Assembly: GCA_010093815.1 (NCBI GenBank)
Contig: ML996580.1
Direction: 5' to 3' (one strand)
Source: Pseudovirgaria hyperparasitica
Taxonomy: Eukaryota
DNA: 64,000 nt
Part shown: positions 23,235 to 64,000 of the stretch, one piece after another
Layout: the number at the start of each line of letters is the position of its first letter
Position numbering within the stretch: the stretch's first letter is position 1
Position numbers and translations under genes: made by a program
The notes under the pieces: model-generated
Database searches by the model: none
The model's input: only the letters and a program-made list of their open reading frames with translations
What the model was told of the DNA's origin: nothing

Positions 23235-24463
23235 ATGGGCTTCAAGAGTCTCATTCCACCTAGCTCGGTTCGGCCTCTCACGCAGTCCGAGACGAACGAG
23301 AGAAAGAAGGTCTTCGGAGTCATCTCGACTCGTATGGTAGTCGTACGTCTCTGATGCATGTTTCAGCCTATATCATGATGCTGATACAACATAGCAACTC
23401 CGTGATGCACTCTCCATTTCATCATGGCTTGCCCTCGGCGCAATCCTCCAGTCCATTCTCTTTGTTACGTTCGGCCACCGCGCTTTCATTCCCGCAGTCG
23501 CCCTCATAGGCTTCCGCATGATCAACGCCTTTCTCATCACCGTGGGCGTCAAAGCCAATCTCGAAATGCAGAACACGATTCTGTCGAAATTCTCCGCTCA
23601 GATTCCCCAATCAGACGGCACGTTCAGTGGAAGGCCAGCGGACGGGGATGTGGTTGTTCTTAAGATTGGAGCCCGCACCGATCAGTAAGCTTCACCTTCC
23701 TTCCTTGTCCCTTGCTTTCGTGCGGTTGTCGACGAGGTCTCGCCACATGTGCCGCATCGGAAGATACAATGACGTCCTACCCGTTGCAACTTGTACTCCC
23801 CAACCGAACACTTTCTCCAATGTGGCAAAGTCATGCAAGGCACATCCTTGCATATCCATTACCATGCCCCAATACCCTACAGCCACGCTATAAGCACACA
23901 ACCGCGCGGCAGAGAAAACACCCGACTAACTCCATCCTAGCCCGCTCGGCCTGTTCGCCCCTGGCTTCAAAGTCCTTGGCGAGTACATGACAGCCATGCA
24001 AGCCTCCCTCGAAGCCCACGCGACACACTACTCCTACCTCGGCGGCACATCCTACTCCGGCATGGAGCGCGCCACCGGCAACGAATTCACCTACATCATG
24101 TACTTCAGCACCGTCGAGGGCGTGCACGCCTTCGCACACGACCCCTTGCACCGCGACGGCTGGGCCTGGTGGAGTAAGGCTGCTCACGACCACATCATGA
24201 TCTACCATGAGCTGTTCAGAAGCAGGCGTGGCGACTGGGAGGCCGTTTATTCGAATACTCGGCCGATTGGCTTGGCGGCGACGCGGTTTGAGGGGAAGAC
24301 GGGTGGTGGGACGGTGTTTTATAGTCCGGTTGTGGATGCGAATAGGGGGTTGTTGGCGACGAGTAGGGGCCGCATGAGTGGTATGGTAAGGGACGGGGAT
24401 CAGAAGTTGCATGATGACTTGAATCGGGGGACGAAGTATGAGGCAGAGAGGGCGGAAGTTTGA
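23235..24463 (+). CDS. DUF4188 / af470-like monooxygenase-family protein with N-terminal hydrophobic segments
   Basis: Exons 23235-23342, 23395-23684 and 23941-24463 give ...WLALGAILQ...VVVLKIGARTDHPLGLFAPGFK...MYFSTVEGVHAFAHDPLHRDGWAWW...IYHELF...WEAVYSNTRPIGL. Confidence 0.8.
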
Positions 24464-24895: not shown

Positions 24896-25782
24896 TTACA
24901 TATACGAGTAACCTCTATAAGACTTTCCCTCGCCAAATCCATACAACGAAGTGCCCATACCTCGAAGTGCATAGACAATCTAGTCATCCACCAAAATTAG
25001 CAACATAACAAATAAAAAAGAAAGCCTCGACCACCTCGTTTCAACAGGATAGGTGTGTCCACTTACATCGTTGGCCCGAACAGTCTTCTGCTGTCGAGCA
25101 TCCACAATTGCCACGGCACGGCGAATTGTCTCGGTCAGACGGCTGCGCAGCGCGAGTCTGATTTCGGCGTATACACCACCGCTGATGCGTCGGACACCTC
25201 CTCGGCGGGCGAGACGGCGGATCGTGGGCCGATTCATGCAGCTCTGGATTGCATCGACGGGACGTCGGCTGTGTAGGACTCGTGTGTTAGTGTGCATCAG
25301 ACAGACAAAAGATGAGGTAGGTGAGCGGTGAATTGTGAGACTGACCGATGGCGCTTCGCGCATCCAGCATTGCGCAAGCCGGTGCCACGACTGTTGAAGT
25401 GAGCCGCTTTTGAGAACTGAGGGCGCGGTGCATGGGAGCTGTTGCGGATGTCGACGCCACGAGCGAGCTGTGGAGCATTCAGAGGCGACGTAGAGGCTTG
25501 GTCAATTGCGTACTCGAGCTGCAGCGCACGAGGAGTTTGAGACTCGGAATCAGTGATGAGCGAATCGGTACGAGCACGAGTCTCTGGCTCGGGGCTGTCG
25601 AGGTAGGAATGCTTGGTAGACGAAAGCTGAGGGTAGACGTCAGTGAAGGCCAGATCTGCGTGGGCAGCGCGCGAGCGGGCAACTTCGTTGGAGCCGGCGG
25701 CGTCGATGATCTCGCGCTTCTTGCAGTTTTGAGTCTGCATGTTCTTGAGATATTCAGGCATTCTTGATGATGGACGGATCAT
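24896..25782 (-). CDS. Divergent histone H4-like protein (H4 variant) with a long N-terminal and a short C-terminal extension, ~240 aa
   Basis: Exons 25782-25346, 25268-25067 and 24979-24896 splice to ...GTGLRNAGCAKRHRRRPVDAIQSCMNRPTIRRLARRGGVRRISGGVYAEIRLALRSRLTETIRRAVAIVDARQQKTVRANDIVYALRGMGTSLYGFGEGKSYRGYSYM*, collinear with H4 from AKRHR to LYGFG. Confidence 0.9.
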
Positions 25783-26983
25783 GAGATCGCTGTTTAGGAT
25801 TTGGTCTTGAAAATATGTATAGGATGGAGACGAGAGTGGTCAGCGAAGTGCTGTCACATATTTATGCTGTTGCATTTGCGCCCAATTGTCATGGCTGGGC
25901 TCCTCTGTAGGACCACTGCTCTGGGAATCAAGCTGAAGTGACATTGGAGGTACCGCAGTGGACGAATCAGAGGTTGAGAGGTCTAAGTGAGCAGAATAGG
26001 AGAAGTGAATTGGGAGAGTGAACAGACCGAGAAAGCGGTGAGACTCCCCTTTCTCAAATTAGATGCAACGATTAATGGAATGAGCTCACCGGATTTGCTT
26101 AATATAAGTATATCAAAAAGTGAATCATGTACGAGACATTGCTACTCAGCGACGCATAGGTGTCAGTGGTCGCCGGTGATCATGTTTGCTGGAGCTTGGA
26201 TGCATCTCCAACACTGCATATTGTGGACTTCTCACGTGATACTTGCTCACTGATATCACGTTGTTTTCTTCGACAAATAAGTTCGCCTCGGTTTTCCGTC
26301 CGACGTTTACTGCTGCTTGGCCGAACTATGGGTTAGTCTTTCCTAACCATTATCGCAAAACTTTGTAAAACCGATGAAATTTCTATTTATGGCCTTGCCC
26401 GAAGTCACAGAGGTACAATTAGTCGAATAACAATCCTAGTCCGATTTTAGGAGGTATCTCGAATTACCGTCTTTAGCTTAGTGAACCACACTGGACGTTG
26501 AAGCCCCATGCACATGCTAAAGAAATAGAATGAAAATGGAGAAAAAAAACCACACCTCGCCAAAAACCCGAGATCGCTAGGAAGTTCGCGGGCGACTATT
26601 TCAGACTAAAACCATGACTTCCAGAGAACTGAAAAGTGAGACCCCATCAATTGTGAGTGAGGAACCTTGGAAATCAGTGAATATTGTTTGGGTCCCTTTC
26701 TTTTAATTACCTAGACATGGTACGGCTCGTTGTGATTGTACGGGTTTCCGGTGATGGTCCTGGTTCCACGGAATTGGAATATATGGCTGAATCCGCAACG
26801 GATCTCTCGGGATAGAAATAAATCAAGGCGTTTGAGCCATTCGCTATGCCTTCTAAAATCTTATATAAAGAACCGCTGTTTCCAGATATCGAATCCTCTC
26901 ACATCACAGCAATCTTCCTAAAAGTACTGAGATCACGCAGACCTTTACGCTTCATTTTCAATCACTCGTCATAATTATTCATC

Positions 26984-28969
26984 ATGTCTACCTTCATGTT
27001 CATCCTGTCGGCCAATGTGTCTGATAGCCTGGCCAGTCAGGCACCATGGCTTGTGCTGGCCGTCAGCATGATAATAGTGACCCTTTGCGTTATCTATCCC
27101 CTTGCTACGGTCACAGGAGTACAGTCATGGTTTGTCTGCTCTGAGAAGCCATGTGAGTTACGAAGACCAGTGCTCTCCAGGACGCAGAGAAAGAGGGAGA
27201 ATAGGCGTCTCATAAAGGATATGAACCGTGCTGTACCACACGGCTCAACAGCAACAACAGCCAAAGAGGTAAATCACATGACTGATGAGTTGAATATCAA
27301 CTGATCATTTGCAGTCCTCGAAGTTAAGTGTTGATACTCCATCGTCGAGTAACAACACGGGCCTGAGCATGAAGCAGTTCTCCACTGCTAATCGCTTTGA
27401 TATATTGGCTGAAGAGGGTTCAGGCAAGGCTCTCACAGTGAAGGAGAAGTCTGCATTTGGCATCTCAGCAGACCAGAGCAGAGTTGCCAAGGGTTTCGCA
27501 TTAGCCAGAAACTCAGCAGTGAAGAAGGCCATGAAGTTGGCTGTATCAAAAGAGAGTGAATCACGGCAGCCAAGCCCAACTTCGTCCGGTTCCGCTCAGA
27601 ACAGCAGGTATAATTCACATACCCATCTCGTTCTTTTGGCAGTCTCACTGACATTGACAGTCCTGTACATAGACAGGATGTCCGCATCCAGATAGTCCAA
27701 AGGGGCTCAAAACGCTGCTGTGCCGCCTCCTTTGAGCCGGCGAAAAGACTCCCCGAGAGTCTTGTATCGTGTTCCAGCTTTGCTGTTCCCAAAGCACCCA
27801 GTTCTGCAACTTTGGTCATCCCATCAAAGGGGTATCGATCATATGCGGAAGCGGTTTCGGGTGTCCCTCAACATGCTCATTCAGCCTGGCCATTGGAGTC
27901 CGGCCGTGTTCCTGCTGCTGAGCAGACTTATGTTTCTGCTATCCAGACGAGCGTAAAGCAAGCACTAGGCCTCGGGAATGGTGAAAAGTTCGCTACCCAG
28001 GCTGTTTTAGGGACTGATACAGTTGTTGAGGGTGGCAGAGACTCGGGTAGCCAGAAGGCTGAAAAGCAGTTTTCACTGACCGAAAACCATGAAAAGACGG
28101 CTGTCCAGGCAGTCTCACAACAAGTTCCCCTGCCTCACGAAGTCATAGTGAGGATGAGTAGGTGGATAAATCATGGTTATCCTCCACCAGCCGACAGCGT
28201 GTGCAGTGAGGAGCGTCAAAAGACGTTTGATGCAATCAAGCGGGGAGATGTCTTGATCGCTGTTGATTTCGAGTGGACCGGCGAAGGGGATGACAAGCAG
28301 GTCACTGAGATCGGGTTCGCAGAGCTGGATACCGGAAAGCTTGAAGGTCTCATAGACAAAGACTTCGATCCTTGTACAGTCTTACAGCATATGACGACGA
28401 CCCACCTCAAGATAGAAGGGTATGCGGCAGCACCTAGAAAGCTATTCGTACAGATGGAGTGCCAGAACGAGCCAAAGGGGTGCCAGGACTGTTTCCAATT
28501 TGGAACTTCGGTAGAGGGCCCGATAGACACCATACGTTCCATCTTCCAAGGCCTCATGGAACCAGTGTCGTCGTGTTTGCAGAAGTCGTACAGCGTCATA
28601 ACGCACGCTGCCGAGCATGAGGACAAAGTCTTCAAGCAGCTCAAAGTCGAGCTGAAGACTCATATTGATACCCAGGTGGTCGCGGGTCCATATTCTGGCC
28701 AGTACGACAGGAAAGGTCCAGTAAGTCTGTCGCAGGTACTCTGGGCTCAGGGGATAGATGGACCGCATCGGCATCTACACAATGCAGGCAACGACGCTGT
28801 TTACACCATGGTGGCAGCGATCTGCATGGCCAGGCCGGGGTACAACAGACTGATCAGGACAGATACTGTGCCAGAACTTGACTTGAAGCTCAATAGGGCC
28901 ATCCGTTCTCTCAAGACACCTGAGTGGCAGACCCGTGAGCAGGCTGAACTCCGCAGTACGGGACGGTAG
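26984..28969 (+). CDS. Gfd2/YDR514C/QIP-like DEDDh exonuclease-domain protein with a predicted N-terminal hydrophobic segment (~624 aa)
   Basis: C-terminal motifs LIAVDFEW...VTEIGFAELDT, IDTQ and LHNAGNDAVYTM. Upstream exons 26984-27268 and 27315-27607 join in frame through introns 27269-27314 and 27608-27672. TATATAAA at ~26862. Confidence 0.78.
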
Positions 28970-30698: not shown

Positions 30699-32041
30699 TC
30701 AGCAGATAAATGTGGCTTCAATGAAGAGCTTTCCTTCCTGTTCGATAGTCTCGCCGTCAATGTCCATCTTTAGCTTGAGTGTAGGCGTGAACTGTAACGT
30801 ATCAGTATAGTCAAGACCGTATTTAGAGGCACGTACCTGGTAAATGTATGGCTTGGTGCCTGCAGCTGAGGCCAAAAGGCTCTTTATGACTGCTGGCACC
30901 TCGGCCATGACATCAACGCGGTCTGTACGTGGTCCAAGGTTTCCGGCAATTACTGCAGTCGCGTCTTTGCCGTCTTTAGTCTTCCCAGTCCATTTATACT
31001 CAACCTCACTAGGCTCTGGCCAGTTGTTTAGGTCATCGACCTTGCTCTTGACGTGCTTGGCAGTGTTTGATGCTCCGGCAAAGATGATTTCACCCTTTTT
31101 AGCAATACCCCCAACATTGACGACAGTGGTGCCATACGATGCAGGAGTAGTGAACTCCATCATGACTGCGGAGTAATCGGGACCCTGAAAGCTGACGAAG
31201 TTCCACTTGGCGCCTGTGACAAGATGTGAGTACTTGCTCGTTCATGTCTATGAACGCCTCTGCGTGACTTACCGGCATGGTGCGGCTTCATTCCCTGCAG
31301 AGCGTGAATGTACATGCCTCGGCCCTTGAAGTTAATCTCGCCAGACTTTGTGATCATGCTGCCCTCAACCTCACACACGGGCCAGAATTTGTGCCACATA
31401 GAACCCCATGGTTTCTGTGGGTCTGTGCCAAAGTGAGTAGTGCCATTTTCTCCAGCAATAAAACCTGGCGCAGCTCTTGAGACTTTGAGATTGACCAGGC
31501 AATCATTGCTGGTAGCAGACTTTATTGTGTAGTATGTTCCGTCTTCGGAGAATTCCAAAGAGCAGCCGTCTGCGTGAAAAGAGTATTTGTCGTCTGAGAA
31601 CCCATAGTTCTTGAGGGGTGTTGAACACCAGAGGCTCGGCCTGCCGTCGGGATAGATAATTTTGGAGTTGAACTGAGCAGCAGTCCTTATGCCCCTGTGG
31701 AAGTCATTAGTGGCACAGAGAGCAGGGCTCAACTTGCAAGCGAAGCTCACATGACATCGCTGTAGATGACCTGGGCCAGTCCGATGTGCCCTTCCTCTGA
31801 CAGCAGGTAGAACTGTTGAGTTTCAACATTGGTCGAGTCCTGAACCTTCCATCTCAGGTGTTCCTTCTTTAACTCGGTATAGGGAGTAGTCTTGGCCTGT
31901 TCAGTGACGGTTTGGATGGCTGACGGGCCGTAGATGGGCTCCTCGGTGCCGGCGACATTCGCAAGCCTATATGTGAGTCAGGTATCTGAATGAAGCACTC
32001 GTGAAGAACTTAACGTACTGTTGCTTGGCCCAGTTGAACAT
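30699..32041 (-). CDS. SVF1: Survival factor 1 (oxidative-stress survival / ceramide-binding Svf1 family)
   Basis: Start [22 protein letters not shown]; motifs [35 protein letters not shown] and FIEATFIC*. Four short introns. Confidence 0.92.
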
Positions 32042-62058: not shown

Positions 62059-64000
62059 TCATCCCTCTGCTTCTGCCTCCGCCATCACCTGCTCGCCCTC
62101 ATCAAGCAGGTCACACACCATCCTCAGATTTCCAATCATCTCCTTTGCCTGTCCGACCAGAAGCAGCTTCTCTGCATTCGCAGGCAGACCCAGATACGTC
62201 GGCGGTTCGCGCTCTGGCAGCTCATTGACCCACTCCGTAAAGTCTTTCCAGCCGGTTGAACTAGGCAATTCCAAGCCCTCGCTGTCTCCTTCAGTGGGCT
62301 TCACAAGCTTGAAGTTGTCCTCGAATGCAGCCGGGGTCATCACGCTCTCGACGATGGAGGTGAGTTGTTTGAAGTCAGACTCGTTGTCGATCTTGCCGCC
62401 GTACATCTCAGTCATGAGCATGCGCAGCATGTCCCAGGGAATGTTCTTTGGTGCCACATTCGTTCGACCTTGAGTGACACGGTCGATCCAGGTGTCAATG
62501 ATGAAAGCACAACACTCGTAATCGCTGTCGTTAAACTCCCAGAAGCCCTTCCATCCGAGCTGAGGCGCATATCGCAAGCGCTCTTGGACAACGGCGTGGA
62601 GGAAAGAGAGCAGCAGGTAAACTCTAGCTCGTTCGACTGGTTGCTGGACAGCTCTGGTGGATAATGAGGACAAAGAGTCCTTCATGTTGGCGCGGATACC
62701 AGCTGGCTGTTCGTACATGAGAATGCGAGACGCTCGGAGAAGGTTGACTGGTATCTTAGGACTAGTTTCCATGGACAGGAATAGTCTGAAGTCTGCATGC
62801 GGCTTGAGAGAATCGATGCGCTTGGTGAGATTCTGCAGCCACATTGGTGCCAAGTGTACGTTCTTGACGAGAACCCAAGAACCTTGTGCTGCAGCATTGG
62901 AGATAGCTTTGTCTGCGCTGGCAGCGCCTTCATTCGAACCCATGGCGATATTCGTGCATGTAGCCTGAGTCTTCTCTACCAGGCTGTCGACCTTGTAACT
63001 GGCATCAAATCCGGGACTGGAGCTCAGGGCGATTGGTGTAGTTGATGTGACTTCTCTGACTATTGGGCCAAGATCGCCACTCGCATCCATCAAACCCTTA
63101 CCAAAGACATCCGTAACGAAGCGCTCCACAGCGGGGATGAATCTGTCTATGCGGAAGAGTTTGACCAGAATAAGTGACCGCAAAGACTTGTCGAAACGTT
63201 CAATCCCATCCGGCCAGGCAGCAGGTACACAGTTCTCAGCAAGCTCTTCGGTGTAAAATCTCTCCCAATCACCAGCAGACGGCTTCTCGCAGTCGTCCTT
63301 GAACAGTTTCATCTTCGACAATCGATCCATTACGTCCTGACGCTTGTCGGCTTGCGTAGAAAGGTCGCTACCACCTAGGTCCTCGTCCAAAACGTGGTCG
63401 ATGAGGCTCTTGTCCATCTTGTAGGGTGCAGCTTGTACAAGCAGCATGGCCAGAGCAATGCGATCTTTCTGAACGAGAGATAGCGAAGTTCGCTTATAAG
63501 TATCGACAAAAAGGTTGCGAATGATCTCGTCTATCCGTGCAGCATTGTTCGCGTTCCCAGCTGACTGCTTGACTCGCAACAAAACCGCATCGAATATATC
63601 AGTAAAGTACTGCAACGAGAACTGATAGAAGTGATTGAGGTGATGCAGCTGCTCCAGTACCGCAAATAGAGCAGCACAGGAACGTGCGATAACATTATAC
63701 TGCAGCGTAACTTTCTCGACTTCGCCCATGACGCCCTCAGTCTCAGCAACCTTGGCAGTGATATCGGCAGCTTCCTTCTTGAGGGTTTCTAGGGTCTGAA
63801 TAACATTGTCGTCGTCAAGAATGTTTCCTTGGGACTCATTCAAAGCCTGAAGCAGTCGTTTCTCGAGACGACGGAGATGCACACTGAACTCTCCTTGCAT
63901 CTTGATCAGGTTCGATCGTCGCTCATCAACATCAGGACGCTCCGATTTAAGAACCTCATTAAGCGTCTGCGTCTGAAGACTGCTTTGCGTGACCGTAAAA
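62059..64000 (-). CDS. DYN1: Cytoplasmic dynein heavy chain, C-terminal part (AAA5-AAA6); gene continues beyond the window
   Basis: Motifs [63 protein letters not shown] and LGLPANAEK. Confidence 0.97.

Follow-up and report, generated by a model that had tools for sequence, protein, structure and literature searches.

Histone H4 is the least variable of the core histones, and true variants of it are few. One family of such variants in Pezizomycotina, H4E, was described by Flipphi et al. in 2024 (PMC10878826), who called it 'enigmatic' and for whom Neurospora crassa hH4v is the orthologue. In the portions of that paper cited here, H4E of Aspergillus nidulans (hheA, AN12228) is reported to be nuclear and to bind H3, and its deletion to have no visible phenotype; hheA sits between nudA and svf1, a synteny kept in Eurotiomycetes and Dothideomycetes (section 2.1); and the gene has seven introns, with one more in Dothideomycetes, in a structure termed 'strikingly conserved', the exons across the fold measuring 88, 60, 18, 21 and 18 nt. 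In the relevant part of a 2026 preprint (bioRxiv 10.64898/2026.08.11.744009), the family members tested are nucleosomal, and N. crassa H4v (NCU04338) is assigned to the SAD-6/ATRX pathway and to genome defence; it is described as binding H3 and ASF1 and as the histone partner of SAD-6, the orthologue of ATRX, which is strictly responsible for its deposition at perturbed chromatin, at telomeres, at tRNA and rDNA loci and at mobile elements in decay. A first-pass annotation of the DNA studied here still gave the function of the family as unknown, a view that the assignment of N. crassa H4v to this pathway makes outdated. In this study these systems are compared with the gene EJ05DRAFT_520684 of Pseudovirgaria hyperparasitica, a mycoparasitic Dothideomycete placed in the order Acrospermales in PMC7082219. 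The gene lies in a 64-kb window, i.e. the whole stretch of DNA analysed (64,000 nt of contig ML996580.1). Judged from its sequence and its position, it is probably a fast-evolving positional orthologue of Pezizomycotina H4E, the family of A. nidulans hheA and N. crassa H4v.

EJ05DRAFT_520684 is read on the minus strand from an ATG at 25782 to a TAA at 24896, in three exons and two GT-AG introns, with a 240-aa product from Met1, 233 aa from Met8 and 226 aa from Met15. Neither a stop codon nor a frameshift interrupts the 240 codons, and both introns have consensus borders and branch sites; it is a real, intact protein-coding gene. The public NCBI entry 'hypothetical protein EJ05DRAFT_520684' (233 aa) is 100% identical to the Met8 form and has the same splice junctions, and its UniRef label is 'Histone H4'. 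Since the gene is annotated in the one database and named in the other, it is not cryptic, as the first-pass annotation had called it. The gene model itself was correct: the two introns of 77 and 87 nt, the coordinates, the LYGFG end and the 11-aa tail agree with the sequence and with the public junctions, translation gives Met in exon 1 at codons 1, 8 and 15 and nowhere else, and the TATA-like element noted about 75 bp upstream is ATAAATAT, 76-83 nt before the ATG.

The C-terminal ~100 residues of the protein are an H4 histone fold. When the 66-aa exon 2 was searched against the Protein Data Bank (PDB) with phmmer, 94 distinct sequences were found at E <= 1, and among the matches listed all 60 were histone H4 (best E 1e-11); by this measure the likeness to H4 is far beyond chance. 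The end of exon 1, HFNSRGTGLRNAGCAKRH(R), pairs in alignment with GKGLGKGGAKRHRK of both canonical H4 and H4E. With the 233-aa protein as query, phmmer run exhaustively over 1.84 billion representatives gave 3831 matches at E <= 0.001, and H4 was present in all 16 of those examined from the best 150. The ten strongest non-self matches were gene-prediction fusions, with a doubled canonical H4 or an H4-H3-H4 or H4-H2B-H4 order, and these outrank the true relatives because the doubled scores inflate them. In an AlphaFold2 model made from a 29-row alignment (233-aa numbering), helices are predicted at 145-148, 152-160, 163-196 and 204-214, with a block predicted local distance difference test (pLDDT) score of 86-97 over 171-210. 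Foldseek aligned this model with H4 chains in 50 of 50 among the PDB matches listed (E 5e-5 to 6e-4, template modelling (TM) score by target 0.45-0.65); the monomer model fuses L1 into one long helix, and the root-mean-square deviations are therefore large. The PDB search, the model and the Foldseek matches together bear out that splicing rebuilds a complete H4-like fold. The Pfam histone families PF15511, PF00125 and PF02969 gave no match at E <= 1 to the whole protein or to single exons. The Plenodomus H4E likewise had no histone match, and the scores of N. crassa H4v and of the Neohortaea H4E remained below threshold; the Pfam test is therefore insensitive for this group.

The position of the gene and a few residues of its fold associate it with H4E. 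EJ05DRAFT_520684 is 5 kb from the svf1 orthologue and 36 kb from the nudA orthologue, all on the same strand (Table 1), so that the nudA/svf1 neighbourhood is preserved at this locus, although the exact gene order is not. For residue comparisons, 87-residue cores were taken from the collected proteins and duplicates were removed, which left 118 H4E-type and 80 mostly canonical cores. The protein carries both V57A (82% of H4E rows) and F61R (86-88%); in canonical H4, V57 is present in 89% and F61 in 95%, and neither H4E state exceeds 3% of the canonical rows. These hallmarks were derived in this analysis from the 118 H4E cores and have no published definition. In addition, an A-I-V segment replaces T-Y-T, as in H4E of the Dothideomycete type, and in a careful tree of 44 rows the canonical sequences form a clade that excludes EJ05DRAFT_520684 (91/92; 96% of bootstrap trees). 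All of these features speak against the strongest alternative, in which the gene is a lineage-specific duplicate of canonical H4, without H4E descent, that diverged rapidly, gained extensions of its own and converged on H4E-like residues.

A number of observations weigh against the assignment to H4E, and several of them would suit a canonical duplicate. Seen from nudA, the gene is beyond svf1 and not between the two, and svf1 and nudA are themselves ~30 kb apart with other genes intervening; the tight nudA-hheA-svf1 arrangement of Aspergilli is broken up in P. hyperparasitica. At 15 diagnostic columns, the protein has the canonical state in nine, the H4E state in two and neither in four, and it ends in LYGFG. 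The H4E consensus used for these columns is biased towards Pleosporales. Variants of H4 from Mycosphaerellales and Cladosporium, which belong to H4E, retain several of the 'canonical' states (ITKP, YGFG), so that such states in EJ05DRAFT_520684 may be ancestral and need not point to a duplicate. The profile score is 95.7 bits with H4E and 101.0 bits with canonical H4, i.e. the canonical profile is ahead by 5.3 bits. Core identity is 52% to the canonical consensus and 45% to the H4E consensus, the latter below the minimum of the H4E rows, whose identity to the consensus of their own group is 63-100% (median 74%). Of 31 derived states, nine (29%) are common in H4E; for H4E rows this share is 67% at the median and 24% at the lowest, and 14 unrelated odd variants span 0-33%. 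The equivalents of R78, R92 and D68 are also altered.

The trees divide in a similar way. A quick tree of 83 rows puts EJ05DRAFT_520684 beside a Sordariomycete H4E (Shimodaira-Hasegawa-like approximate likelihood ratio test 81) on a branch of 3.44 changes per column; when the tree was constrained to join it with canonical H4, the likelihood was 3.48 log units above that of the free quick tree (approximately unbiased (AU) test, p-AU 0.62), so that a canonical origin is slightly more likely in this comparison and is not rejected. The careful tree hangs the protein on an unresolved node. A stable H4 phylogeny was not obtained by the authors of the H4E family either (PMC10878826, section 2.2). Overall, it appears from the trees, the AU test and the profile scores that EJ05DRAFT_520684 is equidistant from H4E and canonical H4.

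Gene structure is a further point against H4E descent, as two introns are present where H4E has seven or eight. Canonical H4 genes of Pezizomycotina have two introns, which would again fit a duplicate. Two intron hot spots in these canonical genes were described by Yun and Nishida (PMC3029354). Exon 2 is 202 nt long, and the distance from i3 to the extra intron of Dothideomycetes would be 205 nt (88+60+18+21+18); therefore, at most one of its borders can be at a conserved H4E position. Intron loss would explain the low number. An H4E intron site deduced from an insertion in an Aureobasidium protein was also considered and was dropped, as it fits no simple intron retention. The proposal of an H4E/hH4v-type variant in the first-pass annotation is supported as regards the intact variant and its long N-terminal extension, and the svf1/nudA neighbourhood agrees with it; sequence placement does not confirm it, and the 7-8-intron structure is absent. 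Phylogeny with both groups sets the protein outside the canonical clade in the careful tree without grouping it with H4E. Taking position and residues together, we consider a canonical duplicate unlikely and an H4E orthologue the probable reading.

The fold has diverged strongly. The terminal branch of EJ05DRAFT_520684 stands against a median of 0.14 in the quick tree, and measures 1.95 against a median of 0.13 in the careful tree, i.e. 15-25 times the median. Of the 30 columns with at least 90% conservation in H4E and canonical H4 alike, 24 are retained and three of the six changes are from K to R, while only 26 of the remaining 56 agree with either consensus (Fisher p 0.003). Where a mostly basic column has a residue in this protein, the residue is basic in 14 of 17 cases. 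The core contains one Lys and 19 Arg, compared with medians of 7 and 13 in both comparison groups (minimum 4 Lys, maximum 16 Arg), and the K+R total of 20 equals the H4E median and is close to the canonical median of 21; the fold has thus undergone a shift from Lys to Arg with its basic charge unchanged. With canonical residue numbers assigned by alignment, the equivalents of K20, K31, K44, K59 and K91 are Arg and K77 corresponds to Gln; the tail remnant GTGLRNAGCAKRHR lacks K5, K8 and K12, and the equivalents of K16 and K79 alone remain. Three positions at which canonical H4 touches DNA or H2B are changed, R78 to Q, R92 to G and H75 to A. Retained are the alpha1/L1 DNA-binding block IRRLARRGGVRRIS, K79-T80, D85, Y88, Y98, G99-F100 and the KRHR patch. 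On this alignment, the divergence is not random and the substitution pattern tracks the constraint on the H4 family. The charge-conserving changes, the intact splice signals and the lack of stop codons argue for selection and against decay.

The N-terminal part of the protein has no counterpart in canonical H4. The K16 equivalent is residue 143, and 112-126 more residues precede it than in canonical H4, in accordance with the >110-aa extension that had been claimed. Since Met is found in exon 1 at codons 1, 8 and 15 only, a long extension is obligatory in any product that starts with AUG. Its description as Ser/Thr/Pro/Arg-rich is only moderately true: the 127 residues include S 16, T 8, P 10, R 11 and A 16, with a net charge of +1. 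In the AlphaFold2 model the part preceding residue 145 is devoid of secondary structure, and block pLDDT stays at 46-63 across residues 1-150, which predicts that the ~125 residues are disordered. A word-index search with residues 1-125 returned the protein itself alone among 39 candidates, the exhaustive phmmer search gave no relatives of the extension among the matches whose sequences were examined, the ESM Atlas gave no usable match, and Pfam found only DUF601 in the extension-bearing protein, below threshold (E 0.016 and 0.065). One of 250 pattern stretches from metagenomes passed tblastn as a match to exon 1; it was judged to be due to chance because it covers 20 residues, was seeded by the search pattern itself and lies on a 2223-nt contig without an H4 fold.

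Evidence that the extension is coding comes from codon usage. A codon table was trained on 15 Pfam-supported open reading frames of the window and evaluated on 41 training chunks and 120 non-coding control chunks. Read in its own frame, the extension reaches 0.21 bits per codon, compared with a training median of 0.18 and a control maximum of -0.005; the two other frames give -0.17 and -0.27. Along the sequence, 90-nt windows have negative values upstream and become positive where the ATGs cluster. The extension has therefore a coding-like nature in the correct frame. The open frame by itself is weak evidence of coding, because 2.1% of composition-matched resamples of the 164-codon frame are free of stops, and it was not counted as such because stops are scarce in the exon 1 stretch on several frames. 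Other open frames overlap exon 1, at 25479..25778 (minus strand, 99 codons) and 25414..25767 (plus strand, 117 codons).

Among 124 H4E-type proteins, the median number of residues before the K16 equivalent is 52.5, and apart from two proteins with 143 the next largest number is 98. The two are from Parastagonospora nodorum (236 aa) and Plenodomus biglobosus (237 aa), and they contain an internal MVNERP or MVNQRP Met at 79 and 75, respectively; judged from these sequences, their long N-termini are probably annotation over-extensions. With 129-143 residues, EJ05DRAFT_520684 has the longest obligatory N-terminus of the set and stands at the end of a continuum, so that 'unusually long', as first suggested, is apt once the two over-extended annotations are set aside. 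Pleosporales H4Es start with MVNERPRQFGG, where EJ05DRAFT_520684 has ...SSHAPRPQFSKAA (MVNERPRQF vs ...HAPRPQF) and no Met. The missing Met suggests that the ancestral start may have been lost and that an upstream ATG took over.

This missing start codon, together with the long terminal branch, the extension without relatives in the searches and the frequency of stop-free frames in the resamples, could instead mean that EJ05DRAFT_520684 is a decaying or non-functional H4E copy, whose upstream frame is fortuitous or untranslated and whose public model is simply the longest open reading frame. Loss of H4E is reported to be common in some fungal orders (PMC10878826, section 2.1), which would accord with such a fate. 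However, decay would have to be reconciled with 240 codons free of stops and frameshifts, two sets of consensus splice sites, conserved columns that are retained far more than others, and a charge held through K-to-R changes. The codon usage of the extension is of the coding type in the right frame only and exceeds all 120 controls, and GC content is normal (0.51-0.55), without the AT-rich signature that repeat-induced point mutation (RIP) leaves. Decay is therefore regarded as quite improbable. On the same GC values and the same lack of an AT-rich signature, a RIP-mutated duplicate was rejected.

That the gene is functional and no longer builds nucleosomes, with the histone fold as an adaptor and the disordered N-terminal region as the working part, is very improbable: the extension makes up more than half of the protein and the equivalents of R78, R92 and H75 are altered, but IRRLARRGGVRRIS, K79-T80, D85, Y88, Y98, G99-F100 and the KRHR basic patch are retained, and the family members tested are nucleosomal in the cited part of the preprint (bioRxiv 10.64898/2026.08.11.744009). 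For the earlier suggestion of a histone mimic, nothing was found in support.

With EJ05DRAFT_520684 taken as an H4E orthologue, its history and function can be potentially described as follows. The gene may have lost most of the family introns and the ancestral start codon, and initiation at an upstream ATG may have added an orphan disordered segment of ~125 residues before the H4 tail GTGLRNAGCAKRHR and the fold. By analogy with the relatives tested, the fold would pair with H3, ASF1 would pass the pair to the ATRX orthologue SAD-6, and SAD-6 would place it, independently of replication, in chromatin that is perturbed or repetitive. The resulting nucleosomes would retain the K16-R-H-R basic patch and, because every fold lysine but the K79 equivalent is replaced, would not be acetylatable, methylatable or ubiquitylatable at the usual H4 lysines. 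The long flexible tail on such nucleosomes could recruit or exclude partners. In the boldest form of this scheme, a mycoparasite would have turned the H4 variant linked to SAD-6/ATRX into a histone that is 'modification-proof' and would have joined a new disordered domain of ~125 residues to it, and this would represent a new functional class of H4 variant and more than a divergent orthologue. We hold this form to be speculative and doubtful; if it were true, acetylation, methylation and ubiquitylation of H4 would be avoided in the nucleosomes, which would bring their own recruitment tail.

The remainder of the window contains no other H4-like locus, including the interval between svf1 and nudA (eight probes), and no H3-like sequence (best tblastn E 7.9), so that the absence of an H3 partner gene, noted earlier for the immediate vicinity, extends over all 64 kb. 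About ten genes are found between svf1 and nudA, among them a protein kinase, a GNAT acetyltransferase, a PAN-domain protein, a methyltransferase and a beta-propeller protein of the RSE1/DDB1/CPSF1 type. A DEDDh_C exonuclease gene (27614..28966, plus strand, Pfam E 7e-25) is located between EJ05DRAFT_520684 and svf1. The RNA exonuclease ERI1 is named as a modulator of H4v enrichment in N. crassa in the cited part of the preprint (bioRxiv 10.64898/2026.08.11.744009). On the other side, a convergent monooxygenase af470-like open reading frame (23930..24460, plus strand, Pfam E 5e-22) ends ~440 nt from the EJ05DRAFT_520684 stop, and a 204-aa frame is open over the same stretch on the opposite strand.

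Table 1. Features of EJ05DRAFT_520684 and its syntenic neighbours, with positions counted from the first letter of the window.
Feature	Position	Strand	Description and evidence
TATA-like element ATAAATAT	25865..25858	-	76-83 nt 5' of first ATG; sequence reading only
Exon 1	25782..25346	-	437 nt; translation
Orphan N-terminal extension, codons 1-127	25402..25782	-	Translation; in-frame ATGs at 25782, 25761, 25740 (Met1, Met8, Met15)
End of exon 1, H4-tail-like HFNSRGTGLRNAGCAKRH(R)	25346..25401	-	Includes basic patch KRHR; translation, alignment
Intron 1	25345..25269	-	77 nt; GTCAGT...CTAAC...AG; phase 2; splits Arg codon after K-R-H
Exon 2	25268..25067	-	202 nt; alpha1, alpha2 and start of alpha3 of H4 fold
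Intron 2	25066..24980	-	87 nt; GTAAGT...CTAAT...AG; phase 0; D/I boundary in ANDIVYAL
Exon 3	24979..24896	-	IVYALRGMGTSLYGFG + 11-aa tail EGKSYRGYSYM + TAA (24898..24896)
svf1 orthologue	30702..31822	-	Pfam Svf1 E 5e-46, Svf1_C E 1e-54
Dynein heavy chain (nudA orthologue), 3' part	62062..63999	-	Runs off window; Pfam AAA_9, Dynein_heavy, AAA_lid_11, E 1e-24 to 2e-30

EJ05DRAFT_520684 may show how far an H4E/H4v variant can drift with the constrained positions of its fold retained. Its distinguishing features are the longest obligatory N-terminal extension of the 125 proteins compared, a near-total replacement of Lys by Arg with the charge held, and the loss of most family introns; by extension length, lysine depletion and intron loss it is set apart within the known H4 variants, as seen in one genome. 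Provided that it is expressed, the gene is a natural 'all-K-to-R' H4 that could reveal which lysines are needed by the SAD-6 pathway and show the effect of an added disordered tail on the nucleosome. Should it be silent, it records a route of decay of H4E, a gene lost from several fungal orders.

Compared with H4E as represented by A. nidulans hheA and N. crassa H4v, EJ05DRAFT_520684 is alike in the reduced number of tail lysines, the lack of linkage to H3, the nudA/svf1 neighbourhood, V57A, F61R and the A-I-V segment, as well as in its long divergent N-tail (129-143 residues), its 11-aa C-tail and the retained basic patch KRHRR; like several bona fide H4Es, it has no Pfam histone match. It differs from them in having two introns and not seven or eight, in an extension without relatives, and in a fold with one Lys, where the minimum of the H4E rows is four. 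A 35-aa C-terminal element of N. crassa H4v is absent from it. In A. nidulans, the inducing condition is starvation for nitrogen at raised temperature.

In comparison with canonical H4, the fold is 52-56% identical and retains a GxGL...AKRHR tail remnant, IRRLARRGG, KT, D85, YAL and LYGFG. It has derived states at 31 canonical-conserved columns, K5, K8, K12, K20, K31, K44, K59, K77 and K91 are replaced, 112-126 residues are added at the N-terminus and 10 at the C-terminus, and no divergent H3 partner gene accompanies it within the window.

The variants from Neohortaea acidophila, Cercospora beticola, Septoria linicola and Cladosporium fusiforme resemble EJ05DRAFT_520684 in their YGFG-type ends, ITKP and short C-tails. 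The C-tail of the Neohortaea acidophila H4E, EAKGSSLRRGF, is similar to EGKSYRGYSYM (E-A-K vs E-G-K at the start), the Septoria variant shares RQQKTV and DIV.AL, and the Cercospora variant shares RAALIVE. However, the Mycosphaerellales and Cladosporium variants are only 125-144 aa long, with N-tails of ~25-45 residues, and are 63-71% identical to the canonical consensus, compared with 52% for EJ05DRAFT_520684. A long tail added before an H4 fold is also known from CpBV-H4 of Cotesia bracovirus, an H4 with a 38-aa N-tail mentioned in the Discussion of the H4E paper (PMC10878826); that tail is basic, Lys-rich and of unrelated origin, whereas the tail of EJ05DRAFT_520684 is near neutral and rich in S, A, P and T.

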